Source of the DNA: Candidatus Cloacimonadota bacterium
GTDB lineage: Bacteria > Muiribacteriota > UBA6191
Direction: 5' to 3'
DNA length: 44,144 bases
NCBI GenBank assembly: GCA_023954715.1
Contig: JAGSHD010000001.1
Location: forward strand, 556,468 to 600,611
Positions 779-34,700 of the stretch are shown piece by piece (position 1 is the first letter of the stretch; every line of letters begins with the position of its first letter). A program made the translations under genes and the position numbers. A model generated the notes under the pieces. It did not search any database, was not told the origin of the DNA, and saw only the letters and a program-made list of their open reading frames with translations.

Positions 779-1045
779 CTATCTTTGTATGATTGTCTTA
801 CGCTCCGCCTGGGCTTCTTCTACTTTTACATCATCACTTTGTATCTGGACGGGTTGCCTATTAAGCTGGATACCATCTATATCAGACAAATTCAATCCAT
901 TAGACTCTAAAATTTTGTTTACTAACTCTTTGTGATCTTCTTCGTGTTCAAAGGGTAATGCGTCGCCATCTGATTCATAGTCAATCAGTAGTTCTTGCTT
1001 TCCGTTTGTTGTATTTTTTTTTAATGTTAGGGTTATCTTTGACAT
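779..1045 (-). CDS. small acidic protein (88 aa), unknown function, translationally coupled to the upstream FtsH-like gene
   Basis: Its start codon overlaps the stop of the protease gene (TAATG at 1043..1047 on the minus strand). It is D/E-rich (DYESDGDALPFEHEEDHKE) with no TM segment and no motif I recognise. Confidence 0.5.
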   Translation of the reverse strand: MSKITLTLKKNTTNGKQELLIDYESDGDALPFEHEEDHKELVNKILESNGLNLSDIDGIQLNRQPVQIQSDDVKVEEAQAERKTIIQR

Positions 1046-3114
1046 TATGCCCCCTCTTGTCCTTGAAACAGTTTTTCAATATCAACTCTTTCAAGAGTTT
1101 CCTTGAGTATTAATTCTTCTTTTAGTTTATGTAGCATGTCTAATCTTGACTCTAATATTTGACGTGCTTTTTTCTTAGCTCTATCTAAAATCTCATCGAT
1201 TGCTCGATCTCTTTTATTTAAAATGTCAGTGGACATGTTTTTATCATCCACCACTCTTACCCCAAAGGCTTCTGACATTCCTAGTACAGACACCATTTCT
1301 TCTACTAACTTATTTGCTCGATAGATGTCATTTTGTGATCCAATACTCACATCTTTAAAGACCAAGGATTCGGCCTCTCTACCACCCATAAAAACGATCA
1401 AATCAGCTAATAACTGTTTTTTAGTAATGACATATTTATTTTTACGACCAACGTGCTGCACATATCCCAAAGCATCGGTATAGTCAGAATTAATGGAAAT
1501 CCTTTCTACATCAGTACTTTCTTTGATGCTTAAAGCCACAAGTGCATGGCCTGCTTCATGGTAGGCTACTACTTCTTTTTCTTCTGCATTTAAAACTACT
1601 TTGGTTTTTCCGCCATGCATAGCATCATATAGGTCTTTATCAGTAAATTCATTACGATTTTCTCTGAGTTGAACTCTTTTTAAGTAGCGCATGATTGCAT
1701 TTAAATGATCACCCGTATATTGACTCCCTGTCATAGCGTCAGTAGTTTCACCTGTTTTTCTTGTTAAGAAATCAAGCTGTCTATCATCTAATCCTAACTT
1801 CATTTTTTGATTGTACAAAGTTAAAACTGCTGCCCGATCTGTCTTATCAGGAAAAGGAATCTCTACTTTTAACTCAAAACGACCTGGACGTAAAAGTGCT
1901 GGATCTAGAGAACTTACAAAGTTAGTTGTCCCTACTATAAATACAAGCTCTTCTTTTCTGAATCCATCCATCTCAGTTAACAGCTGGTTTACCATAGAAT
2001 GATTCACTTCTGTTGAAGACCCACTATCTCTTGCACCAGCAAAAGAGTCTAACTCATCAAACACAATAATAGAAGGAGCCGATTGTCGAGCCTTGAAAAA
2101 TACTTTTCGGATGTTTTCTTCACTTTGCCCAACCCACATAGACTTCAACTCTGGTCCAGACACAATAATTATTGAAGCATTTAATGAAGTAGCCATCGCC
2201 TTGGCAAAAAATGTTTTACCTGTTCCGGGAGGACCATGAAAAATCAATCCTTTAGGAATAATAGCATCTATTTCTTTTAACTCATCTTCATCGCTTATCT
2301 CAGCCCGACGTTTTAAAATCTCTAAAATTTCTGACCCTAGCTTTTCTTTTACTTGCCCATATCCCCCAATGTCTTTTTGCATATCTACTAGAGGGATTTC
2401 CATGTCACTAGCAATGGACATTTCTCGTATCTGCGAAATTACCTTACCACTATCTTCAGGAAAATCGATCCCATCCAATCTTTGTAAAATTTGTCTTAGG
2501 CGAACCGGATTTAAACCAGAAACATATTGATATAAACTTTGAAAATTAAATGCTGGTGGAAATTTTCTAGCTTCTCTTTGAAGAATTAATCCATCCAAAC
2601 ATTTTCTATCTATTCCAAGTAGCTGCTTTTTAGCAGGAAATAGGTTTTCAATTACTTTTGAAAATGCAAAATACGGATCTTTAAAGGCCAAAAATACAAT
2701 ACGGGGGTTTTCATACAGTAGAGGTAAAATCTCTCTTGCCTCAGTAGTCAAACCTTCATTAGCAGAGTTGCTAACCAACAAATCTAAATGAGGCAATACT
2801 AAGACTTTATCCTCACTAGAGTTTCGCACCCAATGAGTAATTTGTAAAATCATGTTTCTTAGAACACTACCACTATCTTGAGCTCCTTCTGGAATTGCTC
2901 TGCCATCGAGAAACTCTAAGGTATACCCTTGATTTTTTAACTTAGTTCGTACGCACATATACAACCAAGGTATCAATTGTTTTTCGCACTCTAACAAAAC
3001 TGATACACCAGAAGACAGCTTTTGTACTGTCCATGCTATCTCACTGTTATAAGCGTATTCTAGGGCTTGTTTTTCTGATATTTCATTTGGAAGATTTTCA
3101 ATTTGAATTGTCAT
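1045..3114 (-). CDS. FtsH-like AAA+ ATPase / M41 zinc metalloprotease lacking transmembrane helices, with a ~285-aa N-terminal domain of unknown type
   Basis: Walker A GPPGTGKT, Walker B IIVFDELDS, second region of homology LLRPGRFELKV, zinc motif HEAGHALV. The downstream segment MGGREAESLVF...GSQNDIYRANKLVEEMVSVLGMSE is typical of the FtsH peptidase domain. The N-terminal 285 aa are hydrophilic (no TM) and carry no motif I recognise. Confidence 0.85.
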   Translation of the reverse strand: MTIQIENLPNEISEKQALEYAYNSEIAWTVQKLSSGVSVLLECEKQLIPWLYMCVRTKLKNQGYTLEFLDGRAIPEGAQDSGSVLRNMILQITHWVRNSSEDKVLVLPHLDLLVSNSANEGLTTEAREILPLLYENPRIVFLAFKDPYFAFSKVIENLFPAKKQLLGIDRKCLDGLILQREARKFPPAFNFQSLYQYVSGLNPVRLRQILQRLDGIDFPEDSGKVISQIREMSIASDMEIPLVDMQKDIGGYGQVKEKLGSEILEILKRRAEISDEDELKEIDAIIPKGLIFHGPPGTGKTFFAKAMATSLNASIIIVSGPELKSMWVGQSEENIRKVFFKARQSAPSIIVFDELDSFAGARDSGSSTEVNHSMVNQLLTEMDGFRKEELVFIVGTTNFVSSLDPALLRPGRFELKVEIPFPDKTDRAAVLTLYNQKMKLGLDDRQLDFLTRKTGETTDAMTGSQYTGDHLNAIMRYLKRVQLRENRNEFTDKDLYDAMHGGKTKVVLNAEEKEVVAYHEAGHALVALSIKESTDVERISINSDYTDALGYVQHVGRKNKYVITKKQLLADLIVFMGGREAESLVFKDVSIGSQNDIYRANKLVEEMVSVLGMSEAFGVRVVDDKNMSTDILNKRDRAIDEILDRAKKKARQILESRLDMLHKLKEELILKETLERVDIEKLFQGQEGA

Positions 3115-3200: not shown

Positions 3201-3779
3201 TTATATCTTAACAATGATTTTAACTTCACCATTTTCTTTATCTTCAGCAATAGATTCAATCTCACCGATATTTCTTGCCTTCTTTTTTAAAGCTTCTATT
3301 TGTACAACCTCTACTAAGTCTTGAAACAATCCTTCAATCTCATCCAATTTTGGCTCGATTTCTTGTTCTAGTTTATTCTTGGCTGCTTTTTCATAATCTT
3401 TGGCTTCAGTTGATTCTTGTATAAACTTTTCTTTGGCTCTTTCTATGGCACTAGTAATCAAAGGTTCATCACTATACCCTGGATTGTATCCTGATATTTC
3501 TATAGTTTCTTCTCGTTCGAAAGTCTTTTCATCGTCATACTCAATGGACAGTAGCATAGACTCTTCATCGTATTCAATAGTCCAATTTCCATCTTGTTTT
3601 TGATGCACATTGCCTGATTTAGACCAATCATTTTCTTTGGCCAGCTCTTCTGATAAAAGTTTTGCCATTTCAACTTGGGGTAAAATAGGGAGAGTTTCAA
3701 TCAGTGACTTCCATTCTTCATTTACTTTGACTGTATTTCTGATGGTTTCTTTTCTAGATATTCTATATGTATGACTCAT
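3201..3779 (-). CDS. hypothetical acidic protein (192 aa, no Cys)
   Basis: ORF whose start overlaps the stop of the upstream 352-aa ORF by 4 nt (ATGA). E/K-rich, likely coiled-coil C-terminal half. No recognisable domain. Confidence 0.55.
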   Translation of the reverse strand: MSHTYRISRKETIRNTVKVNEEWKSLIETLPILPQVEMAKLLSEELAKENDWSKSGNVHQKQDGNWTIEYDEESMLLSIEYDDEKTFEREETIEISGYNPGYSDEPLITSAIERAKEKFIQESTEAKDYEKAAKNKLEQEIEPKLDEIEGLFQDLVEVVQIEALKKKARNIGEIESIAEDKENGEVKIIVKI

Positions 3780-4834
3780 TTTCTTACCTCGTTTGTTGCC
3801 ATATATTCAAGTTGTTTGTCGTAGATTTCTAATACAGGGTCTACTCTTTTTACTATCAGTCTTTGAAGTTTTTCAGCAATTTTAAAGTTTTCTTCAACGA
3901 AACCAATACTTTGCATTTCGCGTTTGACCTCAAGTATTTTATTTAGAAACTTCTGAAATGAAGACCTTATCTCAAGAATGACACCATATACATGTTTCTC
4001 TTCTAATGATTCAAAAGATTTCATTTCTAGATATCTATTTTTATTTAATAGTCCATTTTGTGAAATTCGATAAAATATCTCAATAGGAAGATAAAACAAA
4101 CTCCAAACTTCGTCTTTTATTCCTATAGAACACAACTCTATCAACTTTTGCAATACTAAACCAATTTCTTGCTGAACTACTTCATAATTTTTCAAATGAA
4201 ATTCAGACTCCCATTGCACAAAACTTTCTACATAATAATCTGTAGAAGCTATCATATAATATTGCTCTGCACTGCTTAACTCATTCCATCTAGGCATAAT
4301 TGATAGCGTATGGTATGAAAAATTAAAGGATGATAGAGGCATAGATTTATACAACTCGCTAAAGCGACTCATGAAAGCACGTTTTTTTGTATCTAAAGTC
4401 TTTCTAAACATTAAGTCTAAAAACACTTTTTCTGATCCAGAAAGTTTTCGATCAAACAGGTAACTAGAGTTTTCGTATTCTTCTTCATACCAAAGTTGCT
4501 GAATATCTCTTAAAACCATTAAAAAGTTTATACTAATCTTATACTCAGCTTCTAAGTCCCAAAATCTACAAAACTCTGCTATTGTACTCGTTTTATAAAC
4601 TCTGTTTTGCCAAGCTGAAGGCATGACTACATCATTCATAATCCAATTTTTTAATATTGAGTTTAGAACCTCTAAGCCACGGCTAGAAAACTTAAAACCT
4701 CTTGGAAACGATACTGGAGGAAAATAAGAAAATGCTGCTCCAATATCTCCATTTTTGATGCGAGTAAGAAAACTTAACAAATAATAATCATTGGCTGGTA
4801 ACAAGTTTTTTTTGCCAATATTCAAATGCGTCAT
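3776..4834 (-). CDS. hypothetical protein (352 aa)
   Basis: Long ORF with 4-nt ATGA overlaps to both neighbours (radical SAM gene upstream, 192-aa ORF downstream). No motif I recognise. Confidence 0.6.
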   Translation of the reverse strand: MTHLNIGKKNLLPANDYYLLSFLTRIKNGDIGAAFSYFPPVSFPRGFKFSSRGLEVLNSILKNWIMNDVVMPSAWQNRVYKTSTIAEFCRFWDLEAEYKISINFLMVLRDIQQLWYEEEYENSSYLFDRKLSGSEKVFLDLMFRKTLDTKKRAFMSRFSELYKSMPLSSFNFSYHTLSIMPRWNELSSAEQYYMIASTDYYVESFVQWESEFHLKNYEVVQQEIGLVLQKLIELCSIGIKDEVWSLFYLPIEIFYRISQNGLLNKNRYLEMKSFESLEEKHVYGVILEIRSSFQKFLNKILEVKREMQSIGFVEENFKIAEKLQRLIVKRVDPVLEIYDKQLEYMATNEVRK

Positions 4835-5412
4835 TTTTTAACTCGCTTCAAGTTTAAAACAGGAAAACCATGAACGCTTAAAGAGTTTCGTTTTAAAACA
4901 AGCTCTACTTGATTTCCTTTTTGAAACTCATCCATTTGATCTTGATAACGGTTCGTTAAAAAATGAATATTTTGGTTACTAGAACCCACCCATCGTCTAC
5001 TTGTTTGTCTTTGCGATGGAAGATATGGACCATCAACTAATAAATCCACAAATTGTAAAACCCTAGCCTTAATAGGATCCTTTTCAATTTCACTTAGATA
5101 ATATCCACTATAGAGCATAACACCAAGGTTTTCAGATTGTATAGCACTAAGGAGTTTGACTAATTCTTCGCTTTGGTCTAAAGGTTCACCACCTAACAGA
5201 CTAATCCCCTCGATATTATGAGTGTGTTTAGAGTTTTGGATGTTTAATTTTAAATTTTCAATGGAGGTTTGGGTGCCATTAGACCTGTTAAAAAGATGGG
5301 GATTACAACAATCTTCGCATCGAATACTACAACCGCTCAACCATAACGCATATCGCTTAAATGGTCCTTCGACTATTGTATGTTCTTTGATATCACCAAT
5401 ATATAAGCCCAC
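4831..5412 (-). CDS. radical SAM activating enzyme, NrdG/PflA (glycyl-radical-enzyme activase) family
   Basis: N-terminal LSGCSIRCEDCCNPHL fits the CX3CX2C cluster motif, flanked as in E. coli NrdG (SGCVHECPGCYNKSTW). GISLLGGEPLDQ matches the NrdG GISLSGGDPL SAM-binding motif. The size (193 aa) is typical of this small-activase subfamily. Confidence 0.8.
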   Translation of the reverse strand: MGLYIGDIKEHTIVEGPFKRYALWLSGCSIRCEDCCNPHLFNRSNGTQTSIENLKLNIQNSKHTHNIEGISLLGGEPLDQSEELVKLLSAIQSENLGVMLYSGYYLSEIEKDPIKARVLQFVDLLVDGPYLPSQRQTSRRWVGSSNQNIHFLTNRYQDQMDEFQKGNQVELVLKRNSLSVHGFPVLNLKRVKK

Positions 5413-5430: not shown

Positions 5431-5583
5431 TTATTCGGTACCGTACATCTGCTCATAAAGTGGTCTAGACAATGGTTTGAAAAAGGAAACTGCTATACAA
5501 CAAACACTAGCTAAAATTAATATTACCGCTAATAATGATAAAAGTTTATCCAAACCATCTGGTTCTACTCTTTTTGATCCCAT
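5431..5583 (-). CDS. possible small single-TM protein (50 aa): MGSKRVEPDGLDKLLSLLAVILILASVCCIAVSFFKPLSRPLYEQMYGTE
   Basis: Manual translation of the minus strand upstream of the radical SAM gene, below the ORF-track size cutoff. It has a hydrophobic core of about 20 residues. No strong RBS. Confidence 0.2.
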   Translation of the reverse strand: MGSKRVEPDGLDKLLSLLAVILILASVCCIAVSFFKPLSRPLYEQMYGTE

Positions 5584-5817
5584 ACATCCCACTTTTATAC
5601 TATATGTTTTGAGTGAAGCCCTACAAAAAATATTATAAATTGATTCATTTTGTAAATGAAATATACCTAATTGTACATTAATTTACAATCTAAAGCTTCA
5701 CTAATGACAGATCTGAACACAGCTTATTCAATTGAACTCTTTTTGCAAAGTTAAATTTATCTTTAACATATTCAAATACTGCTAGACCTAAAAAGGCTCT
5801 GATAGACTAAATAAATC

Positions 5818-6825
5818 TTATGAAATCTCTTGGATCAAATGTAAAATCATTTGTTTTGGTGCAATCCCGATCTGGGATAACAAAACCGGAAACATAGAAA
5901 TCGGTGTCATTCCTGGCAGAGTATTTACCTCATTAATATATATTTTATCATTCTCTAAAAAGAAGTCAACTCGTGCAAATCCCCTTCCCCCAAGGGTTTT
6001 AACAACATTGATTGCAGTAGTTTGAATCATTGTGTTTATGTGAGGAGATAACTCTACAATGGAGGCTTTAGACTCTTCTGATTTGTATTTTGCTTCATAA
6101 CTATAAAAGGAGTCATTAAAAGTGAGTTCTCCAATGGAAGATGCGCGCCACTCACCACCAATTTCAATTACTGCACATTCAATTTCTCTCCCAATACATT
6201 CGGGTTCTATCAATACCTTATTATCATGTATAAAAACATCATTCATGGCTTGAGTAAAGTCATCCGTAGGCTCAACCCTTTGCACGCCAACTGATGAACC
6301 CTGTCTACTAGGTTTTATAAAAATAGTCTGGTTTGCAAAAGGTCTTTTTAAGTCATCTCCTTTGCTAAACCATTGATAATCTAAAACGGGATAGCCTTTA
6401 TCTTGCAAAACTAATTTAGATAAAACCTTATCAAAAGTAAGTACTGAACTCTTAGCATCAAATCCTGCATATTTTATATTCAAACATTCAAATAGATGTA
6501 AAATTTTACCATCTTCACAAGATAAACCATGAACCATTGGTAATACATCAAAAGATGCATAGCCATTTTCTAGACAAGCTTCTTTAATACATCCCACCGA
6601 ATACCTTTTACCCTGCCCATTATATTCTAATAATGTACCTTGTCCTTGACAAAAGCTATAGTCATTGTAAACAGATATCGTAAAATCTTTATGTAAATAA
6701 ATTATAAAAGGGTCAGCATAGTCTCTAGGAAAGTTTTCATAGATAAATCGTCCTGAACTCAAAGAAATAGGCGCCTCCATTCCGGTACCACCCACTAAGA
6801 TGGCTATGTTTTTATCTGTGCTCAT
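5818..6825 (-). CDS. ddl: D-alanine--D-alanine ligase
   Basis: ATP-grasp protein whose C-terminus EVNTLPGMTPISMFPVLL matches the Ddl signature (E. coli RFLEANTSPGMTSHSLVP). I moved the start to the internal Met (MSTDKNIAILVGG) because a perfect AGGAG lies 4 nt upstream of ATG 6825..6823. The track ORF (to 6912) has a 29-aa extension that looks spurious. Confidence 0.85.
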   Translation of the reverse strand: MSTDKNIAILVGGTGMEAPISLSSGRFIYENFPRDYADPFIIYLHKDFTISVYNDYSFCQGQGTLLEYNGQGKRYSVGCIKEACLENGYASFDVLPMVHGLSCEDGKILHLFECLNIKYAGFDAKSSVLTFDKVLSKLVLQDKGYPVLDYQWFSKGDDLKRPFANQTIFIKPSRQGSSVGVQRVEPTDDFTQAMNDVFIHDNKVLIEPECIGREIECAVIEIGGEWRASSIGELTFNDSFYSYEAKYKSEESKASIVELSPHINTMIQTTAINVVKTLGGRGFARVDFFLENDKIYINEVNTLPGMTPISMFPVLLSQIGIAPKQMILHLIQEIS

Positions 6826-7036
6826 ATTTCTCCTAAAAGAAAAATTTAATCGAAAATATCTTAAATTCTCTCGAAACCATTTTAACTTGTTAAAATTCAA
6901 AGTATACTCCATAATATCGGTTAAAATTAGTTACGATTTTAAAGATAACAATAAATTGAATCTATCTTTTAATGAGTTACATAGTTTATGCTCGAATTGT
7001 TACTGTATATTTCTTTTTGTCTATAAACCTTTAATT

Positions 7037-7768
7037 ATGATTCAAAATAACAAAATTCTAAATATCGCCCATAGGGGCTCTTCATTAGTTTGTCCAGAAA
7101 ACACCATTGCAAGCTTTCAAGCTGCCACTTTAGAAGGTAGTGATTATTTAGAAATTGATGTGCGACTTACTAAAGACAAACAAGTTATTATCATGCACGA
7201 TCGTAAAATAAATCGTACCTCAAATCAAAAAGGCAGAATCCGAAAATACACCTTAGAGCAATTAAAACGTCTCGATATAGGCTCTTGGTTTCATAGTGAC
7301 TTTAAAGACCAACGGATATCAACTCTTGAAGAGATTTTAGACTTGTTTGATACCCAAGGTATTATTGTAGATGTAAAAGAGCTAGCCATTGAAAAATATG
7401 TAGTAAGTATCTTAGAGCAATATGCTCATCGAGATATTATCATTTCATCGTTTCATTGGGTTATACTCAAAAAGTTTAAAAAACTAAACCCTAAACTTAA
7501 CTTAGCCATTTTAATTCCACGAAAATTTGGTTGGAGACGAAAGTTTAAAAAAGCAAAAAAGCTTCAATTGTACTCCATTCATATTGAGCAAAGTATTTTA
7601 AATCAAGATATGGTAAATACGGCACACACACTAGGCTTAAAAATCATTCCGTGGAGTTCAAAATATATGCATGAAGGCAGACTTCGCCAAGTTTTATCCT
7701 ATCAACCCGATGGCCTAATTAATGATTATCCTCAAGTTGTTCATAAGCATCTTCACTCTATCAAATGA
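7037..7768 (+). CDS. glycerophosphodiester phosphodiesterase (GDPD, UgpQ-like, cytoplasmic)
   Basis: NIAHRGSS near the N-terminus is the GDPD catalytic His-Arg motif (cf. UgpQ IVAHRGGG). I trimmed the start to the first in-frame ATG (MIQNNKILNIAHRG) because the track ORF runs across the ddl start on the other strand. Confidence 0.75.
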   Translation: MIQNNKILNIAHRGSSLVCPENTIASFQAATLEGSDYLEIDVRLTKDKQVIIMHDRKINRTSNQKGRIRKYTLEQLKRLDIGSWFHSDFKDQRISTLEEILDLFDTQGIIVDVKELAIEKYVVSILEQYAHRDIIISSFHWVILKKFKKLNPKLNLAILIPRKFGWRRKFKKAKKLQLYSIHIEQSILNQDMVNTAHTLGLKIIPWSSKYMHEGRLRQVLSYQPDGLINDYPQVVHKHLHSIK

Positions 7769-8214
7769 AATCTCCAAAGCCATCAATTGTTTCTGAGACA
7801 AGCGCATCCCCTACAAACACTTATGCCAAAGTAGCTTTGTTTTTATTTGTAGTCTTTTTAGTTTGGACAATAACTATAGCCAACAACGGATCAGGCTCCA
7901 CTTATTTTTCATTTTTAAAATATATACCTGGCGGAGACAAGACAGGCCACTTCGTTCTGATGGGAAGTTTTTGTTTTTTAGCAAACTGTGCCATCGGTAA
8001 AAAGGTTTTCAATCTCTTCTTTGCAGAGATTTTAAAAGGAACACTAATTGTATTTTTGATTGTACTTTTTGAAGAGTGCTCCCAATACTTCATCAAATCA
8101 AGAACCTTTGATTTGCAAGATCTAGGAGCCGATATTTTAGGTATAATAGTGTTTGATCTTTTATATCGTACCCTTTGCTACAAAAAAATCATTCATAATG
8201 AAATAACAAAATAA
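7765..8214 (+). CDS. VanZ-like membrane protein
   Basis: Small multi-TM protein with a GDKTGHF motif characteristic of the VanZ family. ATGA overlap with the GDPD gene. Confidence 0.55.
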   Translation: MKSPKPSIVSETSASPTNTYAKVALFLFVVFLVWTITIANNGSGSTYFSFLKYIPGGDKTGHFVLMGSFCFLANCAIGKKVFNLFFAEILKGTLIVFLIVLFEECSQYFIKSRTFDLQDLGADILGIIVFDLLYRTLCYKKIIHNEITK

Positions 8215-9074
8215 AATGATTGATTAGAGTTTTGAAATAAAATCGCTTGATCATTTTTTCTTGGTGAAGTTTTTACGATAAACTTGTCTCCAAGCCTTCT
8301 ATTAACAAAAGCTTCTTTTAAAATCGTATATAAATGATTCTGCTTTGAAAATGCTTCTTTTTTATTTTTGATAAAAGTACTATTAATAATTTTTCCATTT
8401 TCTAAAAAAGCTTCATAGTCAAAGTAAAAATAACTCGATGGCGAAACCTTTGCTCCATCTCCAGACTGAGTAACCCAAATCATTAAGTCATTTACCTCAA
8501 CTGCATCTTTTGAATTTGGTTTTTCAAATTTAACTTTATGTTTTGGTTTAACTATCTCTTCTAAAAATACTTCAAATCTTAAATTAGATTTTGGTGGAAT
8601 CAATCCCCCCTGTGACTTCTCTCCATAAGCTAAAAAATACGGTACTTTGATATTTGCATGACTCAAAAGTGGCACTTTAAGTATACCCTCTGATAGTCCT
8701 TGAATTACACCTGGAAATCCAGCATAAAACTCTATATAACTCTCATCCTCAAAACTAGAGTCAAAGCGAGTACCATTAGAAAACATACCTTTATATTTAA
8801 CTTTTACCAAGTCACCAGGTTTTGGATAACTAGTAGTCATTGATTTAAAAACCGAAACACTTAACTGTTGAAACTCTTCTACTTGTATCAAGTCCATTTG
8901 AAACGTACTCATCTCATTTGTAGTATATTTTTCGATTCGCTTACTAGCCGGATCCATGGATTTGGAGATTAAGTAAGTTTCATACGCACCAAAAAAACAA
9001 GCAAAAATACATGAAAATAGGACTAAATCTCTCCATAAACAATCTGAAGAATCTTTTTCTGTATTTTTAGACAT
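8193..9074 (-). CDS. FKBP-type peptidyl-prolyl cis-trans isomerase, N-terminally membrane-anchored
   Basis: N-terminal TM (LVLFSCIFACFFGAY), then a canonical FKBP domain GDLVKVKYKGMFSNGTRFDSSFE...GVIQGLSEGILKV...YGEKSQGGLIPPKSNLRFEVFLEEI, plus a second degenerate FKBP-like half. Confidence 0.8.
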   Translation of the reverse strand: MSKNTEKDSSDCLWRDLVLFSCIFACFFGAYETYLISKSMDPASKRIEKYTTNEMSTFQMDLIQVEEFQQLSVSVFKSMTTSYPKPGDLVKVKYKGMFSNGTRFDSSFEDESYIEFYAGFPGVIQGLSEGILKVPLLSHANIKVPYFLAYGEKSQGGLIPPKSNLRFEVFLEEIVKPKHKVKFEKPNSKDAVEVNDLMIWVTQSGDGAKVSPSSYFYFDYEAFLENGKIINSTFIKNKKEAFSKQNHLYTILKEAFVNRRLGDKFIVKTSPRKNDQAILFQNSNQSFYFVISL

Positions 9075-9080
9075 TACACA

Positions 9081-11351
9081 TTAAGCCTTTATCTCTTGTA
9101 TTTTTGTCGTAACTTTATCTAATCTTTGTTGTTGCTTGGGGTCTGTCACGATTCCTTTAGATGCTTTTATAATCTCTAATGCTTTATCTAACTCACCTAA
9201 TTTTAAGCTGGTTGAAACTAAATCTCCATACCAAGAATCATTTTCGATTGTTAAAAAACCAAAAACAAGTTGTTTATAGGCATTTTTAAAATCACCTAAC
9301 TTTATGAATACTTGTGACAATAAAGAGTGTAAACGTACAGTATCGGGCAGAGTGCCATCTTGTATCATTTTTAAGATCTTTCTAAAAATAGGCCCCTGAA
9401 TCATTGATTTTGGCATTGCCGTCAATATTTCTATGAAGTTTCTATAATATCGATATTTGACATCTTGCTGATGTAATTTAGTTAGTAAAAACTCATCGCC
9501 TTTTTTAGCTTTTTTATACTGATAAGACAAGATTTCAAAGGTTAGCATACAGGTTTCATCTTGAGCAATAAGTCGTAAACATTGCTCCGTATCAACATCT
9601 TGCTCCATTTGCCGTGCTATATGAACTAAGGCCATTTGTATAAAAAAGTTTCGTAAGTATTTTTCACCAAGTTTACCGATAAACTGATGAGCTTTTCTCC
9701 ACTGTTTTTTAAGGCATAGGTCTCTTATTTTTATCATATACTCAAACAAGACATCATCAATAACACCATTAGAGCTTGAAACAAAGTCATGATCTCTAAA
9801 CCATATTTCTAAGTTTTCAATGATGATTGGATGTACATAATCTGTTGGCGTAAATTTTACATAATCATAAATTTGACGAATAGCTTGAATACCAACTCGT
9901 TGATCCACAGCACTTTCTGTAGCGATCAACTCTCTTAAATCATCTAAAACATAAGTAATCCCACCTAAAAACAAGACATAAGCTGCTACTGCTCTGTTTC
10001 TACCAGAATAGCTTTGATAATTTCGCTCTACATAGGATCGTAAGTCTGAGTTTGCCCAAAACTCTAGCCCTAGTAAAGCCGCTCTTTGGATCTCAACGTT
10101 TTCATCACCAAGTAACTCTTGATAGAGATCCTCTTTACCAGCTGGAACACTTTTAGCTATAGCATCAATACAAACTGAAACGATCTCTACATTATCTTTG
10201 TTTTTATTTAAAAGGTCATTGTAAAAGTCAAATAATGAAGCGTCTTCTAGGGTAGCTAATTGCTCAATTGCTTGAATTGTCACAAAGTCGATGTGACGAT
10301 CGCAAGCTTTCATCAATATATTTTTTACTTTTTCAGATTGGTTTCCTTGTAAAAAACGAATCACTTCTGTCAAAATATCTTCTCTTGTTTCGGATAATAA
10401 TAAAGAAGAGATCCAGTCTAACATTCTTTCATCTTTAGAAAACAACCTCGCCCCTTGAACCGCCATGATTCGAGCATCAAAAGAAGAGTTATTTAATAGA
10501 TTTGAAATTATTTTTAAACCTTTTTGTAAATCGTCATTAGACTTATTGTTTTCATATCGAATTGCCATTACTTCAGCAACGGTAGTAGCTAAACTAAAAC
10601 AATTTGAATCGGCATAGGTTTCTAACAAACTATCAGCAACTTGAGCCTCTTTTTTTAAGAAAATTAGACTTTGAATGGCTGCATTTACTACTAAATCAGC
10701 CTGCTTTTGTAAACATGACATGATTAGAGGAAACGCTATGTCTAAATCACCTTGGGCCATTACTCTTAGATAAGATGCTTTTAGATCAACACCTTCACAT
10801 TCATTGAATCGAGTCTTTAACATTTGGGTCTGAGCTTTTGAAAATTCACAAGTAAACAAAATCAATTTATCAAGTATAAATACTTCTTCTTCTTTGTTTA
10901 CATTGCCCAGGGACTCAATAACAAAATCTAAGCCTTCCGGATCTCCTAACTGACCCAAAGTAGCTATCATATCTTTTTTAACATGAGTTTCAAATTTATC
11001 CTGATTTTTTAACAAAAACTGGGTAATCTCTTTTGGTTTACCAAAATGCTTAAATGTGGAAAGAACCTCAATCTGTTGACCCATTGCTAAAGAAAAAATT
11101 TGTTTAGTCAAAACTTTGGCATAATAAGCGCTTGGCTTATTTTGGATGACTTTTATAACTGAATCAAAATATTCTTTGATATTAGATTCAGTAACCACTA
11201 GCTCGTCATATTTTGTAGATTTTAAATTTGCAATGAGCAAAATAGAAGTATGAACTAAATCCTTTTTGGGACTTTTCAATAGATCCGGTAAAAAATCAAA
11301 ATGAGGCGATAGAATTACCTCTAATAGATCTAATAATTTATTTGAAGACAT
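9081..11351 (-). CDS. large HEAT/ARM-repeat protein (756 aa), unknown function
   Basis: Repetitive alpha-helical pairs (LLxxLxDx-type repeats such as VQGARLFSKDER, IQAIEQLATLED, RAALLGLEF). No catalytic motif. Sits 6 bp upstream of the FKBP gene. Confidence 0.6.
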   Translation of the reverse strand: MSSNKLLDLLEVILSPHFDFLPDLLKSPKKDLVHTSILLIANLKSTKYDELVVTESNIKEYFDSVIKVIQNKPSAYYAKVLTKQIFSLAMGQQIEVLSTFKHFGKPKEITQFLLKNQDKFETHVKKDMIATLGQLGDPEGLDFVIESLGNVNKEEEVFILDKLILFTCEFSKAQTQMLKTRFNECEGVDLKASYLRVMAQGDLDIAFPLIMSCLQKQADLVVNAAIQSLIFLKKEAQVADSLLETYADSNCFSLATTVAEVMAIRYENNKSNDDLQKGLKIISNLLNNSSFDARIMAVQGARLFSKDERMLDWISSLLLSETREDILTEVIRFLQGNQSEKVKNILMKACDRHIDFVTIQAIEQLATLEDASLFDFYNDLLNKNKDNVEIVSVCIDAIAKSVPAGKEDLYQELLGDENVEIQRAALLGLEFWANSDLRSYVERNYQSYSGRNRAVAAYVLFLGGITYVLDDLRELIATESAVDQRVGIQAIRQIYDYVKFTPTDYVHPIIIENLEIWFRDHDFVSSSNGVIDDVLFEYMIKIRDLCLKKQWRKAHQFIGKLGEKYLRNFFIQMALVHIARQMEQDVDTEQCLRLIAQDETCMLTFEILSYQYKKAKKGDEFLLTKLHQQDVKYRYYRNFIEILTAMPKSMIQGPIFRKILKMIQDGTLPDTVRLHSLLSQVFIKLGDFKNAYKQLVFGFLTIENDSWYGDLVSTSLKLGELDKALEIIKASKGIVTDPKQQQRLDKVTTKIQEIKA

Positions 11352-17301: not shown

Positions 17302-17964
17302 TTACTTATGGAGTAAATTAAACTTTTGAGTTGAAGAACTATTCGCTGGATTTAATTTTTTCATACCGATGCTAAACGGTAATAAATGGTGAACCTGCAT
17401 ATATCGAACACCATATTCTTTTGGTATCCATGAATTCATACTATCTGTTTTATATGCTCTACCTATCAATTTCGTAGCATCAGTTACAAAGCTGTTTAAG
17501 TTCACATCATTACTTGAAAACAACATTGTCTTTGTATCTGATTCTATACCAAAAGCTTTACTTCTTATAGCTTGAATATAATAATCTTCATATCCATGGT
17601 TAGTTACCTTAAACAAAAAGCCTACGTATGTATTACTATCAAGTTCAACACCTGCATCATCTTTCATTTGATATGTAGGATTACCTATAGAATTATGCGT
17701 AAATTTTAAATCTAAAGTGGTAACAACTTCTAATTCTTCTCCTGAATCAATTCTTCCTGTATTCGTTTTGTAAAAGAAGATTTGCCCTTTAGCTGTGGTA
17801 AACTCTGCTGCGTTACTTTTACACACATCATGTTTAACTTCAACAGTATTTGATGCACAAATACCAAGTTCTTCTTCATATATTTTTACTACATCTTGAG
17901 CTGAAGCTATAAAGGTATTCAATGCAAACAATGATACTACTACTATTTTTCGGAAACTTGTCAT
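17302..17964 (-). CDS. secreted hypothetical protein (signal peptide MTSFRKIVVVSLFALNTFIASAQD)
   Basis: Classic Sec signal with an A-S-A cleavage site, followed by a beta-rich domain with 3 Cys. Confidence 0.6.
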   Translation of the reverse strand: MTSFRKIVVVSLFALNTFIASAQDVVKIYEEELGICASNTVEVKHDVCKSNAAEFTTAKGQIFFYKTNTGRIDSGEELEVVTTLDLKFTHNSIGNPTYQMKDDAGVELDSNTYVGFLFKVTNHGYEDYYIQAIRSKAFGIESDTKTMLFSSNDVNLNSFVTDATKLIGRAYKTDSMNSWIPKEYGVRYMQVHHLLPFSIGMKKLNPANSSSTQKFNLLHK

Positions 17965-29937: not shown

Positions 29938-30927
29938 ATGAATCACGAAAAACGAAGCGCACAAACCTGTTATGAAGATTTTTACGGAATGCTTTCTGAT
30001 ACAGTTCGAATGAACGCCTACAAAGAAGCAATTAAGAGAAATGTAAATGAAGGAGATATAGTACTAGACCTTGGTGCTGGCACAGGTATTTTGTCTTTTC
30101 TTGCTTTAAAGGCTGGTGCTGCACGAGTCTATGCTATTGAAAAGAGTGATTCAATCGAGCTTGCTAAACAAATAAGCCAAATCAACGGCTTTGATGACAG
30201 AATAGTTTTTATCAATGATAACTCTTCAAATATTGAGTTGGCTGAAAAGGTTGATGTCATCATTTCTGAAACCTTGGGCAGTTTTGGCGTGGATGAAAAC
30301 ACTCTAGAGTTTACCTTAGATGCTCGAGATCGCTTTTTGAAAGAAAACGGAAAACTCATTCCTAGTGGTATTAAGATGTATTTGTGCCCCATCGAAGCCA
30401 AAAAATCTTATGAAAAAATCAACTTCTGGTCTGAAATCGAAGGAATTGACTTTTCTCCTGCTCGCAATATTTTTACGCAAAAAATTATGATTGAAAAAAT
30501 TCAGCAAGATCAATTTTTAGCTGAGCCCGTTTTGTTTAAAGAACTGGATTTTTACAAAGAGTCACGCCTAATTATTGAAAATTTAAATTATTTTAAATTT
30601 AACAGAGCGGGAGTTGTTCATGGTTTTGCTGGATGGTTTGACCTAACATTAGATAGTCAGAGTACTATTAATACTCATCCTTCATGTGAGTCTACTCACT
30701 GGAAACAGGCATTCTTTCCGGCTCAAGACCCTGTCTCCATTATTAAGGGTGATATGCTAGAGCTTAACTTAGAAGTTAGTGCTCAATCAGAGTCTTCAGA
30801 TAATACAAATATCCATTATAATTTTCGTTGTACCCAACTAGCAAATGAGCAAGTAAGCTCAGTTGGTAGAAATGACTTATGTCCCTGTAACAGCGGTAAA
30901 AAATATAAAAAATGTTGTTTGAAGTAA
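29938..30927 (+). CDS. PRMT-like (protein arginine N-methyltransferase fold) SAM-dependent methyltransferase fused to a C-terminal SEC-C zinc-binding motif
   Basis: Motif I VLDLGAGTGILS, post-I AKAGAARVYAIEKS, motif II VDVIISE, double-E loop E-x8-E (SETLGSFGVDE), and THW loop STHWKQ. The C-terminal CPCNSGKKYKKCC matches the SecA SEC-C consensus. Confidence 0.75.
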   Translation: MNHEKRSAQTCYEDFYGMLSDTVRMNAYKEAIKRNVNEGDIVLDLGAGTGILSFLALKAGAARVYAIEKSDSIELAKQISQINGFDDRIVFINDNSSNIELAEKVDVIISETLGSFGVDENTLEFTLDARDRFLKENGKLIPSGIKMYLCPIEAKKSYEKINFWSEIEGIDFSPARNIFTQKIMIEKIQQDQFLAEPVLFKELDFYKESRLIIENLNYFKFNRAGVVHGFAGWFDLTLDSQSTINTHPSCESTHWKQAFFPAQDPVSIIKGDMLELNLEVSAQSESSDNTNIHYNFRCTQLANEQVSSVGRNDLCPCNSGKKYKKCCLK

Positions 30928-31776: not shown

Positions 31777-34700
31777 TTATTGGCCTATCTCTAGGTCTAA
31801 CAATCGATTGGCCTTAATGTTAATCACTCCATCTTTTGAGACTCTTCGCCCCTCTGCAATTATAAAGTTAGATCGCCTAAAAATAATCCTATATTGCTCA
31901 TAAATTAATGGGGGTAATATGATGTTCATCATTCCAAACTCATCCTCTAATGTTAAAAATGCAAAGCCTTTAGCAGTAGGAGGACGTTGCCTGCAAACAC
32001 TCATTCCCGCTACTTTTAAAATATGTCCATTTCTAACTGTTTTTAATCTTGTAGAAGGAACAACCCCTGTTTTCACTAAGCTATCTCTCACCAATTTTAA
32101 TGGGTGTGTGGATGCAGAAAATCCTATAGATGAAAACTCATTTTGTAGCTTACTCCAATCACTTTCACTAGGAAGATCAGGCTCTTTTTCTTTCACTTGT
32201 ATCCATGATTTTTGTAAACTCCTCTTTTTATAAGCCCATAAACTCCATAATAACTCTCGTCTTGCTTGTTTAAAACAGTCAAAAGCTCCAGCTAGTATCA
32301 TATATTCAATTTTTTTATGATCCATATCTGTTCTATCTATAAAATCATACAGTCCTTCAAATATTTTTTCAGACCGAATAGAGTATATTTTTTCGCAAGC
32401 TGATATGGATAAACCTTTGATTAAATTTAATCCAATAAAAATTTTATTAGCTGCTCCAAAACAATATATTTCACTCTTATTAACACTAGGAGGAATGATT
32501 TCTATCCCATGATGCTTAGCATCTTGAATAATTACCTCATTTGAATAAAACCCCATAGGATGATGGTTTAGTATAGACGCCAAAAACTCTGCTGGATAAT
32601 ATTTTTTATACCAAGCTGACACATAAGTTATTTTTGCAAAAGCAAGCGCATGGGATTTACAAAATCCATATAATGCAAATCCTTCAAGAGCTTTATATAT
32701 GGAGTCAATCGCATCAAAGCTAAGTCCATTTTTTAAAGCTCTTTCAAAAAATACAGATTTTAACTGGGCCATAAGCTCTTTTGATCTTTTTTTACTCATA
32801 TTACGTCGTAATACATCCGCTTCTCCCTCACTAAAATCAGCAATCTCAATAGCCACTTGTAAAATTTGCTCTTGAAATAAAATTACCCCTAAAGTGTCTT
32901 TTAAAATTGGCTCCAAACTTGGGTGGTCATACTCTACCACTTCTTCTTTTTGCCTTCTTCTTATATAAGGATTTACCATCCCTCCTTGGAGTGGACCCGG
33001 TCTTATGATAGCTACTTGAATTGCTAATTCATGGAAGTTTCTTGGTTTTGTGCGAGGCAAACTCTGCATCTGTGCTCTTGACTCTACCTGAAACAAGCCC
33101 ACTGTATCTGCTTTACCCATTATGTCATAAACTCGTGGGTCATCCTCTTCAATATCTCTATAGTCGATCACACGATTTGTCGATTTTTTAATCTGATTTT
33201 TAACATCTCTTAAAACCGATAGCATCCTAAGACCTAAGATATCTACTTTAATTAGTCCAGCCTCCTCTACCATATCTTTATCCCACTGGCATACAACTCT
33301 GTTGTTCATCCTAGCGGGTTCTAGTGGTACAACTCTATGGATAGGTATAGATGATATAAGCATACCTCCCACATGAATCGAAGGATGCCTTGGTATGTTC
33401 ATGATAGCGTGTACCATATTTTGAAATACAATCCATGTTTTGGACTGAAGAAGCTTTGAAAACTCCTCCAATTTTGAAAAATCATCAAATGAAACTTTGG
33501 AGTTGTAAGTGCCGCATGTTTTAGCCATTTTTGATAAAACATGATCTGGAAACTCTAGTACCTTGCCAACTTCTTTTATGGCGCTACGAGCTCTAAATGT
33601 TACAAAAGTACAAACCATAGCTACATGATCATAACCGTACTTTTTATACACATATTGAATGATATCTTCTCGATCAAGCTCATTACCATTTGGGTAGCTA
33701 GCAAAGTCAATATCTATATCCGGAATCGCATCAGAGGATTCATTTAAAAACCTTCCAAAAAATAAATTGTGTTTAATAGGACAAACAGGAGTTATATCTA
33801 ATAAATAGGCTACTAAGGAGTTAGCTGCCGATCCTCTTCCTTGTGCTGGAATATTTTTGCCTAACGAATACTGAACAATATCCCAAACTAATAAAAAGTA
33901 TCCACATAAGGATTTATTTTTAATAACTTTTAGCTCAACCTCAAGTCTTTTATTTACTTCTCCTCTGTCTATGGTATTATTTTCAAAAGATACTCTATAT
34001 TTACGAGGAATCGCCTCATAGCATAGCTTTTGTAAGTAAGAATCTACCTTATACGAAGGTGGCACAGGAAAGTCCGGAAACCTATATTTTGAAAAATCTA
34101 AATTTAAACTACAAGACTCTGATATTTTTTGAGTATTATTTAATACTCTAGGATATTTTTTAAATAAGTCATTCATCTCTTCAAACGACTTTATAAATCT
34201 TTCATGGTTTGCAAATCTCAGACTATGTGACTCTCTTAGATTTACTTTATTTTTAATACATAATAATACATCCTGTAGTTTTGCATCCTCTCTTTTTGCA
34301 TAATGAACCCCGTTACTAGCGATGCACTCTATTTGCCTAGAGCTCGCATATTCATAAATCAAATCACAATGCTTTCTATCTTCTTTTTCTTTATGGTGAT
34401 TTAACTCAAAATACAAGTCTTGTTTATCAATATGTTTTAAATAGCTCGATACCAACTGATCTGCTTGATCTACTTTATTTTTTACTAACAAGTCATGTAA
34501 TACAGTAGATTTAAACCCTATCAAAACAAAAAAGTTATCATTTAACTCTAATAACATTTCATAAGTCGTCTTACTTATCCCCTTTTCTTGGCTTTTTCGT
34601 GATGCTGATATGATTGAGCATAAACTTTCGTAAGCACTTTGATTTTTACAAATCACCAAAATTTTATCGTTATTTTCTAATAATAAAATTGAGCCAATGA

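Follow-up and report, generated by a model that had tools for sequence, protein, structure and literature searches.

FtsH ternary systems are FtsH-MoxR-vWA conflict systems that were predicted computationally, with emphasis on Planctomycetota, Myxococcota, and Actinobacteria as hosts (Kaur, Burroughs, Iyer & Aravind 2020, eLife 9:e52696; PMC7159879). Such systems were proposed to work as an NTP-driven switch that gates an effector upon the sensing of an invader, and in the simple subtype "a distinctive radical SAM domain" was named as this effector (PMC7159879). The FtsH-type protein was described as having one active FtsH-type AAA+ domain behind a catalytically dead domain at its N-terminus, the MoxR as carrying a GxxxTAKS variant of the P-loop, and the vWA protein as divergent or inactive (PMC7159879). 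Pfam holds families for the fvmX3-analog (PF20002), fvmX5 (PF20003), fvmX6 (PF20004), fvmX7 (PF20005), bpMoxR (PF20030), and ivWA (PF19997), and our literature search found no experimental paper on an FtsH ternary system.

To our knowledge, the activation of glycyl-radical enzymes is the only role in which NrdG-like enzymes are known. In a 44-kb stretch of DNA (the whole of which we refer to as the window), a sequence-only reading had singled out an enzyme of this type as an orphan, with its function to be sought among the neighboring genes. The advice about the neighbors proved sound, whereas the orphan status did not hold: the neighbors are the defining genes of the published, Pfam-catalogued FtsH ternary system. 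We propose, with a probability of roughly 0.6, that the radical SAM protein (rSAM) is a component of this system rather than an NrdG, and that it acts on a protein or peptide together with its partner fvmX6.

Results

A radical SAM gene heads an operon of the FtsH ternary type

The genes are closely spaced in the 44-kb window and follow the order (small TM peptide)-rSAM-(putative fvmX6)-fvmX5-FtsH-like AAA+/M41 protease-fvmX3-analog-(fvmX7-like gene) (Table 1), where 4-bp overlaps (ATGA junctions) join rSAM to the 352-aa ORF and the 352-aa ORF to the 192-aa ORF. An NCBI protein from a Candidatus Cloacimonetes MAG matches the rSAM protein with 100% identity. The rSAM gene stands alone and is the first enzyme gene, as in the simple subtype, and since the operon is of the FtsH ternary type, rSAM does have conserved partners. 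Very probably, rSAM belongs to an FtsH-MoxR-vWA conflict-system operon of the simple subtype.

Table 1. Genes of the operon in the window, in order of transcription.
Feature	Position	Strand	Basis
Small single-TM peptide gene, 50-53 aa	5431..5592	(-)	ORF 19 bp upstream of rSAM gene
NrdG-like radical SAM enzyme, 193 aa, GTG start	4831..5412	(-)	Fer4_12 and motifs; predicted enzymatic effector
Divergent fvmX6-like protein (putative), 352 aa	3776..4834	(-)	Position, length, weak profile similarity
fvmX5 protein, 192 aa	3201..3779	(-)	Pfam PF20003
Soluble FtsH-like protein, 689 aa	1045..3114	(-)	Pfam AAA and Peptidase_M41
fvmX3-analog, 88 aa	779..1045	(-)	Pfam PF20002
fvmX7-like gene, first 250 codons of ~1050 aa	1..750	(-)	Frame open to position 1; clipped by window edge

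Two of the small proteins exceeded the Pfam gathering cut-offs, namely fvmX5 over its full length (E = 1e-27; 97.6 bits, cut-off 24.2) and the fvmX3-analog (E = 5.2e-20; 71.8 bits, cut-off 27). Among 47 fvmX5 sequences, M1, S2, A168, and G172 were invariant, and 28 sequences of the fvmX3-analog displayed the motif LPxEHExxH...R with L30, P31, E33, H34, E35, H38, and R63 invariant. A Chitinophaga-type context had raised the idea that fvmX5 is homologous to DUF1257 and the fvmX3-analog to DUF2997. Neither homology was supported (hhalign E = 0.07 and Pfam E = 0.1 for the former; hhalign E = 0.11 for the latter), and we keep both pairs as an analogy of context only.

The FtsH-like protein matched Pfam AAA (E = 1.1e-41, residues 290-420) and Peptidase_M41 (E = 6.4e-41, residues 507-682) and reached 298 bits against the FtsH model TIGR01241 (cut-off 600). 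We found a single Walker A motif (GPPGTGKT at 294), a Walker B motif (IIVFDE at 349), and HEAGH at 519, while residues 1-267 yielded neither a P-loop nor a Pfam match. One Walker A/B set behind an N-terminal part lacking a P-loop is the arrangement of an FtsH-type ternary protein, and the predicted layout is a P-loop-free N-terminal domain, an AAA+ domain that should be active, and an M41 zinc protease.

The fvmX7 fragment had no Pfam match, PF20005 included. It shares 62.8% identity with the first 248 aa of a 1054-aa protein in a syntenic relative (L004), which in turn scores 100.8 bits against the canonical fvmX7 HMM. L004 contains a full 8-gene operon whose last genes, right after fvmX7, are bpMoxR and ivWA. 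Because the window stops within fvmX7, these two genes are out of view here, and we expect them past the window edge, 3' of fvmX7. At the opposite end, ~65% identical copies of the small TM peptide occupy the equivalent position in L004 and L005, and a weaker homolog (E = 1.6e-5) lies immediately upstream of rSAM in L010; at the Zavarzinella and Gemmataceae loci, no such gene was found upstream of rSAM. The peptide gene may thus be the first operon gene in the low-GC lineage.

The window operon resembles the described systems in what is probably the same gene set and order from rSAM to fvmX7 and, as seen in L004, in the MoxR and inactive vWA proteins. It differs in its host, a low-GC Candidatus Cloacimonetes MAG; in fvmX6 and fvmX7 proteins too diverged for the Pfam models; in the additional TM-peptide gene; and in the MoxR P-loop of its nearest relative, which is GAPGTGKS in L004 rather than a TAKS form, whereas 13 of 14 other loci have GxPGTAKS. 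The operon is a new, diverged representative of a system already known from computational prediction.

rSAM falls beside NrdG in a rough tree and has no glycyl-radical partner nearby

As the sequence-only reading had held, the enzyme is of the NrdG type. It matched Pfam Fer4_12 with E = 1.6e-30, is 34% identical to Escherichia coli NrdG across all of NrdG, and contains C28xxxC32xxC35, GGEP (74-77), and GSSNQ (143-147). In the family alignment, the three cysteines, GGEP, and GSxNQ were invariant, and a C-terminal extension of ~40 aa was present. The family has the features of the activase class, i.e., CxxxCxxC, a GGE motif for SAM binding, and, 8 residues before the cluster motif, a (D/N/E)GPGxR loop. 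Its consensus is EGPGxR-x7-C, in which the loop keeps the 8-residue distance to the first Cys that PflA and NrdG also show, while the window copy of the loop reads EGPFKR. A profile search yielded ~1,750 clusters at 50% identity, a count that may include some NrdG-like sequences.

In a plain housekeeping role, rSAM would activate a class III ribonucleotide reductase whose gene lies at another site of a presumably anaerobic Cloacimonadota genome, and its own place in the operon would be incidental. The identity to E. coli NrdG speaks for this, as does the top curated match, NCBIfam NrdG (TIGR02491, 114.4 bits), but that score stays under the equivalog cut-off of 126.1, and PRK11121 gave 71.2 (cut-off 199). 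While both enzymes contain CxxxCxxC, an equally placed GPGxR loop, GGEP, VDG, and, toward the C-terminus, GSSNQ, NrdG has ~155 aa and stops just past GSSNQ, whereas rSAM carries ~40 aa more, and its gene shares 4 bp with the next operon gene. In a rough neighbor-joining tree, built without bootstrap, the rSAM clade fell beside NrdG and not within it, so that a firm placement inside NrdG, which the sequence-only reading had named as grounds for refutation, did not come about, and true NrdGs that adjoin NRDD (e.g., P0082) formed a separate clade. Moreover, the linkage to fvmX6, fvmX5, and FtsH is kept across phyla, rSAM is at times fused to fvmX6, and nrdD and pflB were absent within ±10 kb at all 88 related loci. 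Judged from the window and the related loci, a housekeeping role thus appears extremely improbable, and rSAM is most probably not the everyday activase of an anaerobic ribonucleotide reductase.

The search for glycyl-radical partners agreed with what the letters alone had suggested, that neither a glycyl-radical enzyme nor a 7-deazaguanine pathway gene lies nearby. HMMs made from E. coli NrdD and PflB had zero matches in the 44-kb window, the motif R[VIT]xG[YFW] occurred in none of the window ORFs of at least 60 aa (the downstream 352-aa and 192-aa ORFs included, which had been said to lack an RVSGY-type motif), and in 20 other ORFs of the window, Pfam revealed no glycyl-radical enzyme and no queC, queD, or queF. 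The nearest solved structure by sequence is PflA (PDB 3C8F/3CB8; E = 3.7e-20). It has in common with rSAM the N-terminal DGPGIR-type loop, GGE, and the G(V/S)SN of protein-directed activases; it differs in its length (245 aa), in a C-terminal half unlike that of rSAM, and in its PflB-type substrate, of which the window has none. Against the PFLA model TIGR02493, rSAM scored 57.5 bits (cut-off 231.75).

Small molecules are the targets of viperin, which makes ddh-nucleotides, and of QueE, which rearranges CPH4. By analogy, rSAM could act on a nucleotide or metabolite, or merely consume SAM, and so release a toxin, chain terminator, or signal after the AAA+ switch, with fvmX6 as a regulatory subunit. 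Defense is known to employ such radical SAM effectors, rSAM has weak matches to viperin (NCBIfam, E = 0.0017) and pVip (PADLOC, E = 1.6e-4), QueE has the Fer4_12 fold too, and one rSAM relative carries a fused PPP-type metallophosphatase. The rSAM partners, in addition, offer no convincing protein radical site, and aerobic hosts speak against a persistent protein radical. However, the viperin and pVip matches are marginal, QueE (TIGR04349) gave 27.5 bits (cut-off 300), so that a grouping with QueE, which the sequence-only reading had entertained, did not materialize, and no nucleotide-metabolism partner was found in the window or at the related loci. In sequence and motifs, rSAM comes closest to the protein-directed NrdG and PflA, with their equally spaced GPGxR loop. 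We therefore consider a small-molecule effector unlikely, and count the loop spacing and these best matches in favor of protein-directed over small-molecule chemistry. As with pVips, a radical SAM enzyme would here provide a conflict system with its output, but pVips work alone on nucleotides, whereas rSAM belongs to a multigene AAA+/protease operon. PADLOC recognized no known defense system in the window and returned generic IetA/TRIP13 AAA matches and the marginal pVip match only. At one related locus (L012), a separate true QueE lies close to the system rSAM.

fvmX6 is the tightest partner of rSAM

The 352-aa protein of the window had no Pfam match, PF20004 included, and only three close homologs among 5.8 billion proteins. 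Its position and length equal those of the PF20004 fvmX6 in the Zavarzinella and Gemmataceae loci. An fvmX6 HMM made without its own lineage gave a weak 16.8 bits, hhalign aligned it with fvmX6 over 291 collinear columns (E = 0.0019) with agreement in the W..R.W and GF.E..F..AQ motifs, and the L010 protein is an intermediate (23% identity). This weak similarity suggests that the 352-aa protein is a divergent fvmX6-like protein.

Among 80 genome loci, fvmX6 was found directly downstream of rSAM in 52 of 71 cases. We also observed rSAM and fvmX6 as a stand-alone gene pair followed by unrelated genes, as well as four fusion proteins that unite the two domains, one of which recurs on two independent contigs; P0230 is an example of a natural fusion. 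These pairs and fusions are new here and strengthen the earlier suggestion of a partnership with the 352-aa protein. The tightest partner of rSAM is fvmX6: adjacent, sometimes the sole partner, and sometimes fused. Judged from gene linkage, it is probably a physical partner.

For the canonical fvmX6, AlphaFold yielded an α-solenoid (pLDDT 94) with no solved relative, a result that is likewise new here. The model of the window protein from a mixed alignment reached a pLDDT of 61 and a pTM of 0.44, and the canonical model was therefore taken for the fold search. The modeled fold is a helical scaffold, not a glycyl-radical fold, and no invariant Gly is common to the canonical family and the window copy.

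Related loci and the wider clade

The same gene order occurs in Planctomycetota and Myxococcota, the Zavarzinella and Gemmataceae loci among them. An FtsH-like gene was present at 35 of 55 rSAM loci, rSAM stood alone at 9 of the 55, and the linkage of rSAM was kept despite rearrangement in L029, L077, L082, and L006. For the 5-gene core of L006, a phage origin found little backing, with one informative PHROGs match among 10 proteins and no relative in a viral-contig scan. Many of the hosts (Myxococcus, with a locus in strain AM003, L078; Zavarzinella; Chitinophaga) are, we take it, aerobes. In the wider rSAM relatives, we found that an AAA+ ATPase is always adjacent, which is new here.

Some variant contexts of this wider clade bring in proteins that might handle nucleic acid: an HHH_3 (ComEA-like) membrane protein adjoins rSAM in Chitinophaga and L096, and the P0056 context has Upf1-like helicases and a protein with an S1 domain close to rSAM. 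They would fit an effector that damages or modifies invader DNA or RNA brought to it by an adjacent partner. Pfam, however, recognized no nucleic-acid-binding domain in the canonical FtsH ternary components of the window, the window fvmX6 is neutral (pI 6.9; partner charges are uninformative), and no NrdG-like enzyme is known to us that acts on nucleic acid. We regard such an effector as improbable.

Discussion

We favor the reading in which rSAM works within the FtsH ternary system alongside fvmX6. Its [4Fe-4S] cluster would cleave SAM reductively to a 5'-deoxyadenosyl radical, which would then remove a hydrogen atom from its substrate, a protein or peptide. The α-solenoid scaffold of fvmX6 could hold or deliver this substrate, or it could link rSAM with the AAA+ components. 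The small proteins of the operon, i.e., fvmX5, the fvmX3-analog, and the upstream TM peptide, are candidate substrates. The NTP-driven switch that gates the rSAM step upon invader sensing would consist of the FtsH-like unfoldase/protease together with the MoxR-vWA pair. For the protein- or peptide-directed nature of the chemistry taken by itself, we see about even odds.

A more specific scheme, in which the system would contain a novel type of radical-bearing protein that serves immunity instead of metabolism, would have the NrdG-like enzyme, bound to fvmX6, install a glycyl-type backbone radical on an operon protein at a site that the FtsH-like protein exposes. One candidate site would be Gly172, an invariant residue of fvmX5 that lies 20 residues from the C-terminus. 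In the mostly aerobic hosts, O2 would cut the radical-bearing backbone in a one-shot, irreversible step, and this cleavage would act as an immune switch or toxin release. Gly172 may, however, be a purely structural helix cap, and we deem this scheme very improbable.

Several observations weigh against the favored protein-directed role of rSAM with fvmX6. The partner is a predicted helical scaffold and does not have a glycyl-radical fold, and Gly172 of fvmX5 is perhaps structural. Aerobic hosts fit poorly with a stable glycyl radical. Furthermore, the fvmX6 assignment in the window is weak, bpMoxR and ivWA lie outside the window, and there are loci where rSAM occurs by itself.

Overall, what appeared to be an activase without a substrate becomes a defined question on a widespread system. 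A sister clade of NrdG that is tied to an AAA+ protease, a MoxR-vWA switch, and an α-solenoid partner would carry protein-directed radical SAM chemistry into conflict and immunity systems, and the rSAM-fvmX6 fusions and stand-alone pairs provide experimenters with a minimal two-component unit.

Sequence and family of the radical SAM enzyme

The NrdG-like radical SAM protein encoded in the window (see table) is identical in sequence to one from a Candidatus Cloacimonetes MAG. Its description as an activase-type protein by the sequence-only reading was correct: Fer4_12 matched at E 1.6e-30, and the top curated family was NrdG (TIGR02491), with 114.4 bits against a cut-off of 126.1, which was not reached. 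Models of QueE, PflA, YjjW, and viperin all scored far under their own cut-offs. The protein shared 34% identity with E. coli NrdG over the entire NrdG (residues 13-152 versus 11-153) and continued for ~40 further residues past the end of this alignment, while the nearest solved structure by sequence was PflA (3C8F, E 3.7e-20). It carries C28xxxC32xxC35, GGEP (74-77), and GSSNQ (143-147), and in an alignment of 37 homologs, the three cluster cysteines, GGEP, VDGP, and GSxNQ were invariant or nearly so, as was an EGPGxR loop (E15/G16/P17/R20) that ends eight residues ahead of the first Cys, as do its counterparts in PflA (DGPGIR) and NrdG (NGPGTR). The same alignment revealed a family-specific C-terminal extension that closes with a conserved VNGFP-like turn. 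As judged from sequence, the family thus displays an activase-like active-site signature.

A position firmly inside the NrdG clade, raised earlier as part of what would refute the reading, was not what we obtained: In a rough neighbor-joining tree without bootstrap, the system-linked enzymes formed a single clade, sister to a clade of E. coli NrdG and short homologs (among them P0082, encoded immediately 3′ of an NRDD gene), with PflA and QueE outside both. The family profile yielded 1,754 matches at E ≤ 1e-30 among 1.84 billion cluster representatives, a count that may include some NrdG-like sequences, and the family is therefore sizeable.

Coordinates and gene orders of features in the window and in related loci
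Feature	Locus	Position	Strand	Description
Radical SAM gene	Window	4831..5412	-	GTG start, 193 aa
TM peptide	Window	5431-5592	-	50-53 aa, single TM, 19 bp 5′ of the radical SAM gene
fvmX5	Window	3201-3779	-	192 aa; PF20003 "FtsH ternary system domain X5", E 1e-27
FtsH-like	Window	1045..3114	-	689 aa; Pfam AAA + Peptidase_M41
fvmX3-analog	Window	779-1045	-	88 aa; PF20002, E 5e-20
DnaE2-like and IMS/ImuB-like	Window	31777-36360	-	Pol III alpha gene (1035 aa) directly 3′ of IMS/ImuB-like gene (491 aa)
PRMT-type	Window	29938-30927	+	329 aa; arginine methyltransferase core incl. oligomerization subdomain, C-terminal SEC-C motif
ORF without Pfam match	Window	40665-43364	-	899 aa
ORF without Pfam match	Window	38800-39774	-	324 aa
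ORF without Pfam match	Window	17302-17964	-	220 aa
Five-gene core	L006	10001-14711
Five-gene core	L007	2179-6889
QueE homolog	L012, Gemmataceae MAG	7860-8585	-	E 7e-16 to E. coli QueE
P0230 fusion	L094	935-2647
P0230 fusion	L095	137-1849
Metallophosphatase fusion	L017, Planctomycetaceae	9953-11308	+	In frame; PPP family (GDxHG/GDxxDRG/GNHE)
Distant context	L003, Chitinophaga	6653-10609		AAA, 144 aa (8305-8739), DUF2997, HHH_3 membrane protein, radical SAM
Distant context	L096 (P0061)	6781-10385		DUF2997, HHH_3, radical SAM, AAA
Distant context	P0064			Radical SAM, 439 aa, AAA, 141 aa, 66 aa
Distant context	P0056			S1 protein, 377 aa, AAA_2, radical SAM

The operon in the window

The radical SAM gene heads a compact minus-strand operon. 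Its stop overlaps the start of a 352-aa ORF (ATGA), which likewise overlaps fvmX5 (ATGA); after an 86-bp gap follows the FtsH-like gene, overlapping at its stop with the start of the fvmX3-analog, and a final ORF begins 28 bp further on and is open to window position 1. The FtsH-like protein is soluble and has a single Walker A (GPPGTGKT, 294) and a single Walker B (349); its HEAGH (519) is intact, and there is no P-loop in its first ~290 residues and no Pfam match in its first 267. The edge-cut ORF shares 62.8% identity with the beginning of a 1054-aa protein in L004, a syntenic relative, and that protein scored 100.8 bits on an fvmX7 HMM made solely from canonical sequences. The TM-peptide gene has ~65% identical copies at the same position in L004 and L005 and a weaker counterpart in L010, and was not found 5′ of the radical SAM gene in the loci of Zavarzinella and Gemmataceae that were examined.

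"FtsH ternary systems", as defined by Kaur, Burroughs, Iyer and Aravind (eLife 2020, PMC7159879), unite a MoxR-type AAA+ protein and a divergent vWA protein with an FtsH-type protein in which the N-terminal AAA domain is dead; their radical SAM enzyme is covered there by one sentence, and we found no experimental work on it in the literature. Gene content suggests, with a probability of about 90%, that the radical SAM enzyme belongs to such an operon. The system type has been described computationally, and this locus is a divergent example of it in a Cloacimonadota host outside the lineages named as typical in that paper. The TM peptide could be the "peptide-effector" alluded to there, or an unrelated small membrane protein.

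The gene is accordingly no "orphan", as it had been called, having conserved operon neighbors, and the instinct that these neighbors hold the answer was right. The stated absence of partners held up: HMMs of E. coli NrdD and PflB matched nothing in the whole window, the RVSGY-type pattern R[VIT]xG[YFW] occurred in no window ORF of ≥60 aa, and Pfam found neither glycyl-radical enzymes nor the 7-deazaguanine genes queC/D/F in 20 other window ORFs (ribosomal, replication, efflux, ferredoxin, and regulatory genes). Elsewhere in the window, the DnaE2-like and IMS/ImuB-like genes look like an error-prone "mutasome" cassette, and a PRMT-type protein with a SEC-C motif is, to our knowledge, uncommon in bacteria.

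Linkage across related loci

L004 has a 65% identical radical SAM enzyme and matches the window in its flanking genes (rpsF to ddl); its whole operon reads 50-aa ORF, radical SAM, 357 aa, fvmX5, FtsH-like, fvmX3-analog, 1054 aa, bpMoxR (PF20030), and the inactive vWA gene ivWA (PF19997). In Zavarzinella formosa and a Gemmataceae MAG, the order is likewise radical SAM, fvmX6 (PF20004), fvmX5, FtsH-like, fvmX3-analog, and fvmX7. We scanned species-representative genomes with the radical SAM alignment, annotating with HMMs built for this analysis, and obtained 80 loci, chiefly from Planctomycetota and Myxococcota. Their hosts include Myxococcus xanthus, Nannocystis, and Ca. Uabimicrobium. The gene immediately 3′ was fvmX6 in 52 of the 71 loci with enough DNA. 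Where at least 6 kb of sequence followed the radical SAM gene (55 loci), 43 had fvmX6 anywhere, 38 fvmX5, and 35 the FtsH-like gene, while the radical SAM gene stood without other system genes in 9. The MoxR P-loop was GxPGTAKS, the variant reported in PMC7159879, in 13/14 loci, and GAPGTGKS in L004. Homologs of NrdD or PflB were found in 0 of 88 loci.

Linkage persisted through rearrangement, both in L029, L077, and L082 (FtsH, fvmX7, MoxR, inactive vWA, radical SAM, ~1.2 kb, fvmX5; in L082 the ~1.2 kb holds ORFs of 99 and 300 aa) and in L006 (radical SAM, fvmX5, FtsH, fvmX6, fvmX3-analog). L006 and L007 carry this five-gene core without fvmX7, MoxR, or inactive vWA, on an 85-kb contig that may be a phage or another mobile element: It has many TnpB-like genes, a resolvase gene, and short ORFs of unknown type. 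In L012, a true QueE homolog lies 1.4 kb from the system radical SAM gene on the opposite strand, so QueE is encoded separately in that genome.

Pairing with fvmX6

The 352-aa protein of the window had no match in Pfam, NCBIfam, or PADLOC, and a search of 5.8 billion proteins yielded just three close homologs. It agrees with fvmX6 in position and length, scored 16.8 bits on an fvmX6 HMM made without the Cloacimonetes lineage, and aligned with fvmX6 in hhalign at E 0.0019 with a probability of just 15%, collinear across 291 columns and pairing the hallmark motifs (AWQ...CRFWE with GGWR...GRLWER; IGFVEExFxxAQ with VGxFDEGYAxAQ); L010 provides an intermediate (23% identity). It is probably a very divergent fvmX6.

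In six loci (L014, L027, L028, L047, L062, and L088), the radical SAM-fvmX6 pair occurred without other system genes, followed 3′ by unrelated genes (protein kinases, a TonB-type receptor, an FG-GAP protein, an antiporter subunit). Four cluster representatives (P0223, P0230, P0241, and P0253; 529-570 aa) join both in one polypeptide, as both HMMs confirmed; P0230 has precomputed Pfam matches to Radical_SAM, Fer4_12, and fvmX6, and lies on two independent contigs with an fvmX5 gene nearby. These pairs and fusions are new points. The radical SAM enzyme is probably coupled physically to fvmX6, which looks like a scaffold or adaptor working physically with it and whose modeled fold differs from the glycyl-radical fold. 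In L017, a radical SAM enzyme is fused to a metallophosphatase, with no other system genes nearby and no second example found.

That the window enzyme is a housekeeping NrdG is highly improbable: It misses the TIGR02491 cut-off, groups beside NrdG in the tree, bears a C-terminal extension, is built into an operon, and belongs to a family that is linked to system genes across phyla and in some cases fused to fvmX6.

Candidate substrates and wider contexts

As a component of the ternary system, the enzyme would generate a 5′-deoxyadenosyl radical and with it remove hydrogen from a macromolecule, most likely an operon protein or peptide, a step that may be gated by the FtsH-like unfoldase/protease together with the MoxR-vWA pair. 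Candidate sites are the Ala168/Gly172 region of fvmX5, the fvmX3-analog motif, and, in this lineage only, the upstream TM peptide; none resembles RVxG[FYW]. In the fvmX5 alignment (A7), Ala168 and Gly172 (KAxxxG, 20 residues from the C-terminus) and the N-terminal Met-Ser are 100% invariant, and Tyr5 is nearly so; Gly172 could simply be a helix cap. The fvmX3-analogs (85-88 aa) have an absolutely invariant LPxEHExxH...R (alignment A9; HEEDH at 34-38 in the window copy), a putative zincin-like metal-binding signature in a tiny protein encoded directly after an M41 protease. A small-molecule, viperin-like effector function is unlikely: The aerobic hosts (many, such as Myxococcus, Zavarzinella, and Chitinophaga, presumably so) would fit it, as would the finding of no clear radical site in the partner proteins, but the enzyme matches protein-directed activases much better.

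An AAA+ ATPase adjoined or lay near the radical SAM gene in all four distant-clade contexts examined, so the combination of NrdG-like radical SAM enzyme, AAA+ ATPase, and small proteins extends beyond the FtsH ternary system. Homology of the small proteins across contexts was not significant (hhalign E 0.07 and 0.11), nor was that of the Chitinophaga 144-aa protein, whose KAKAEEKG resembles the fvmX5 KAxxxG. The HHH_3 and S1 partners in these variant contexts hint at a nucleic-acid-directed effector, which we consider improbable. The family raises the question of the substrate of an entire NrdG-sister clade, for which the radical SAM-fvmX6 pair and its fusions offer a concrete entry point.
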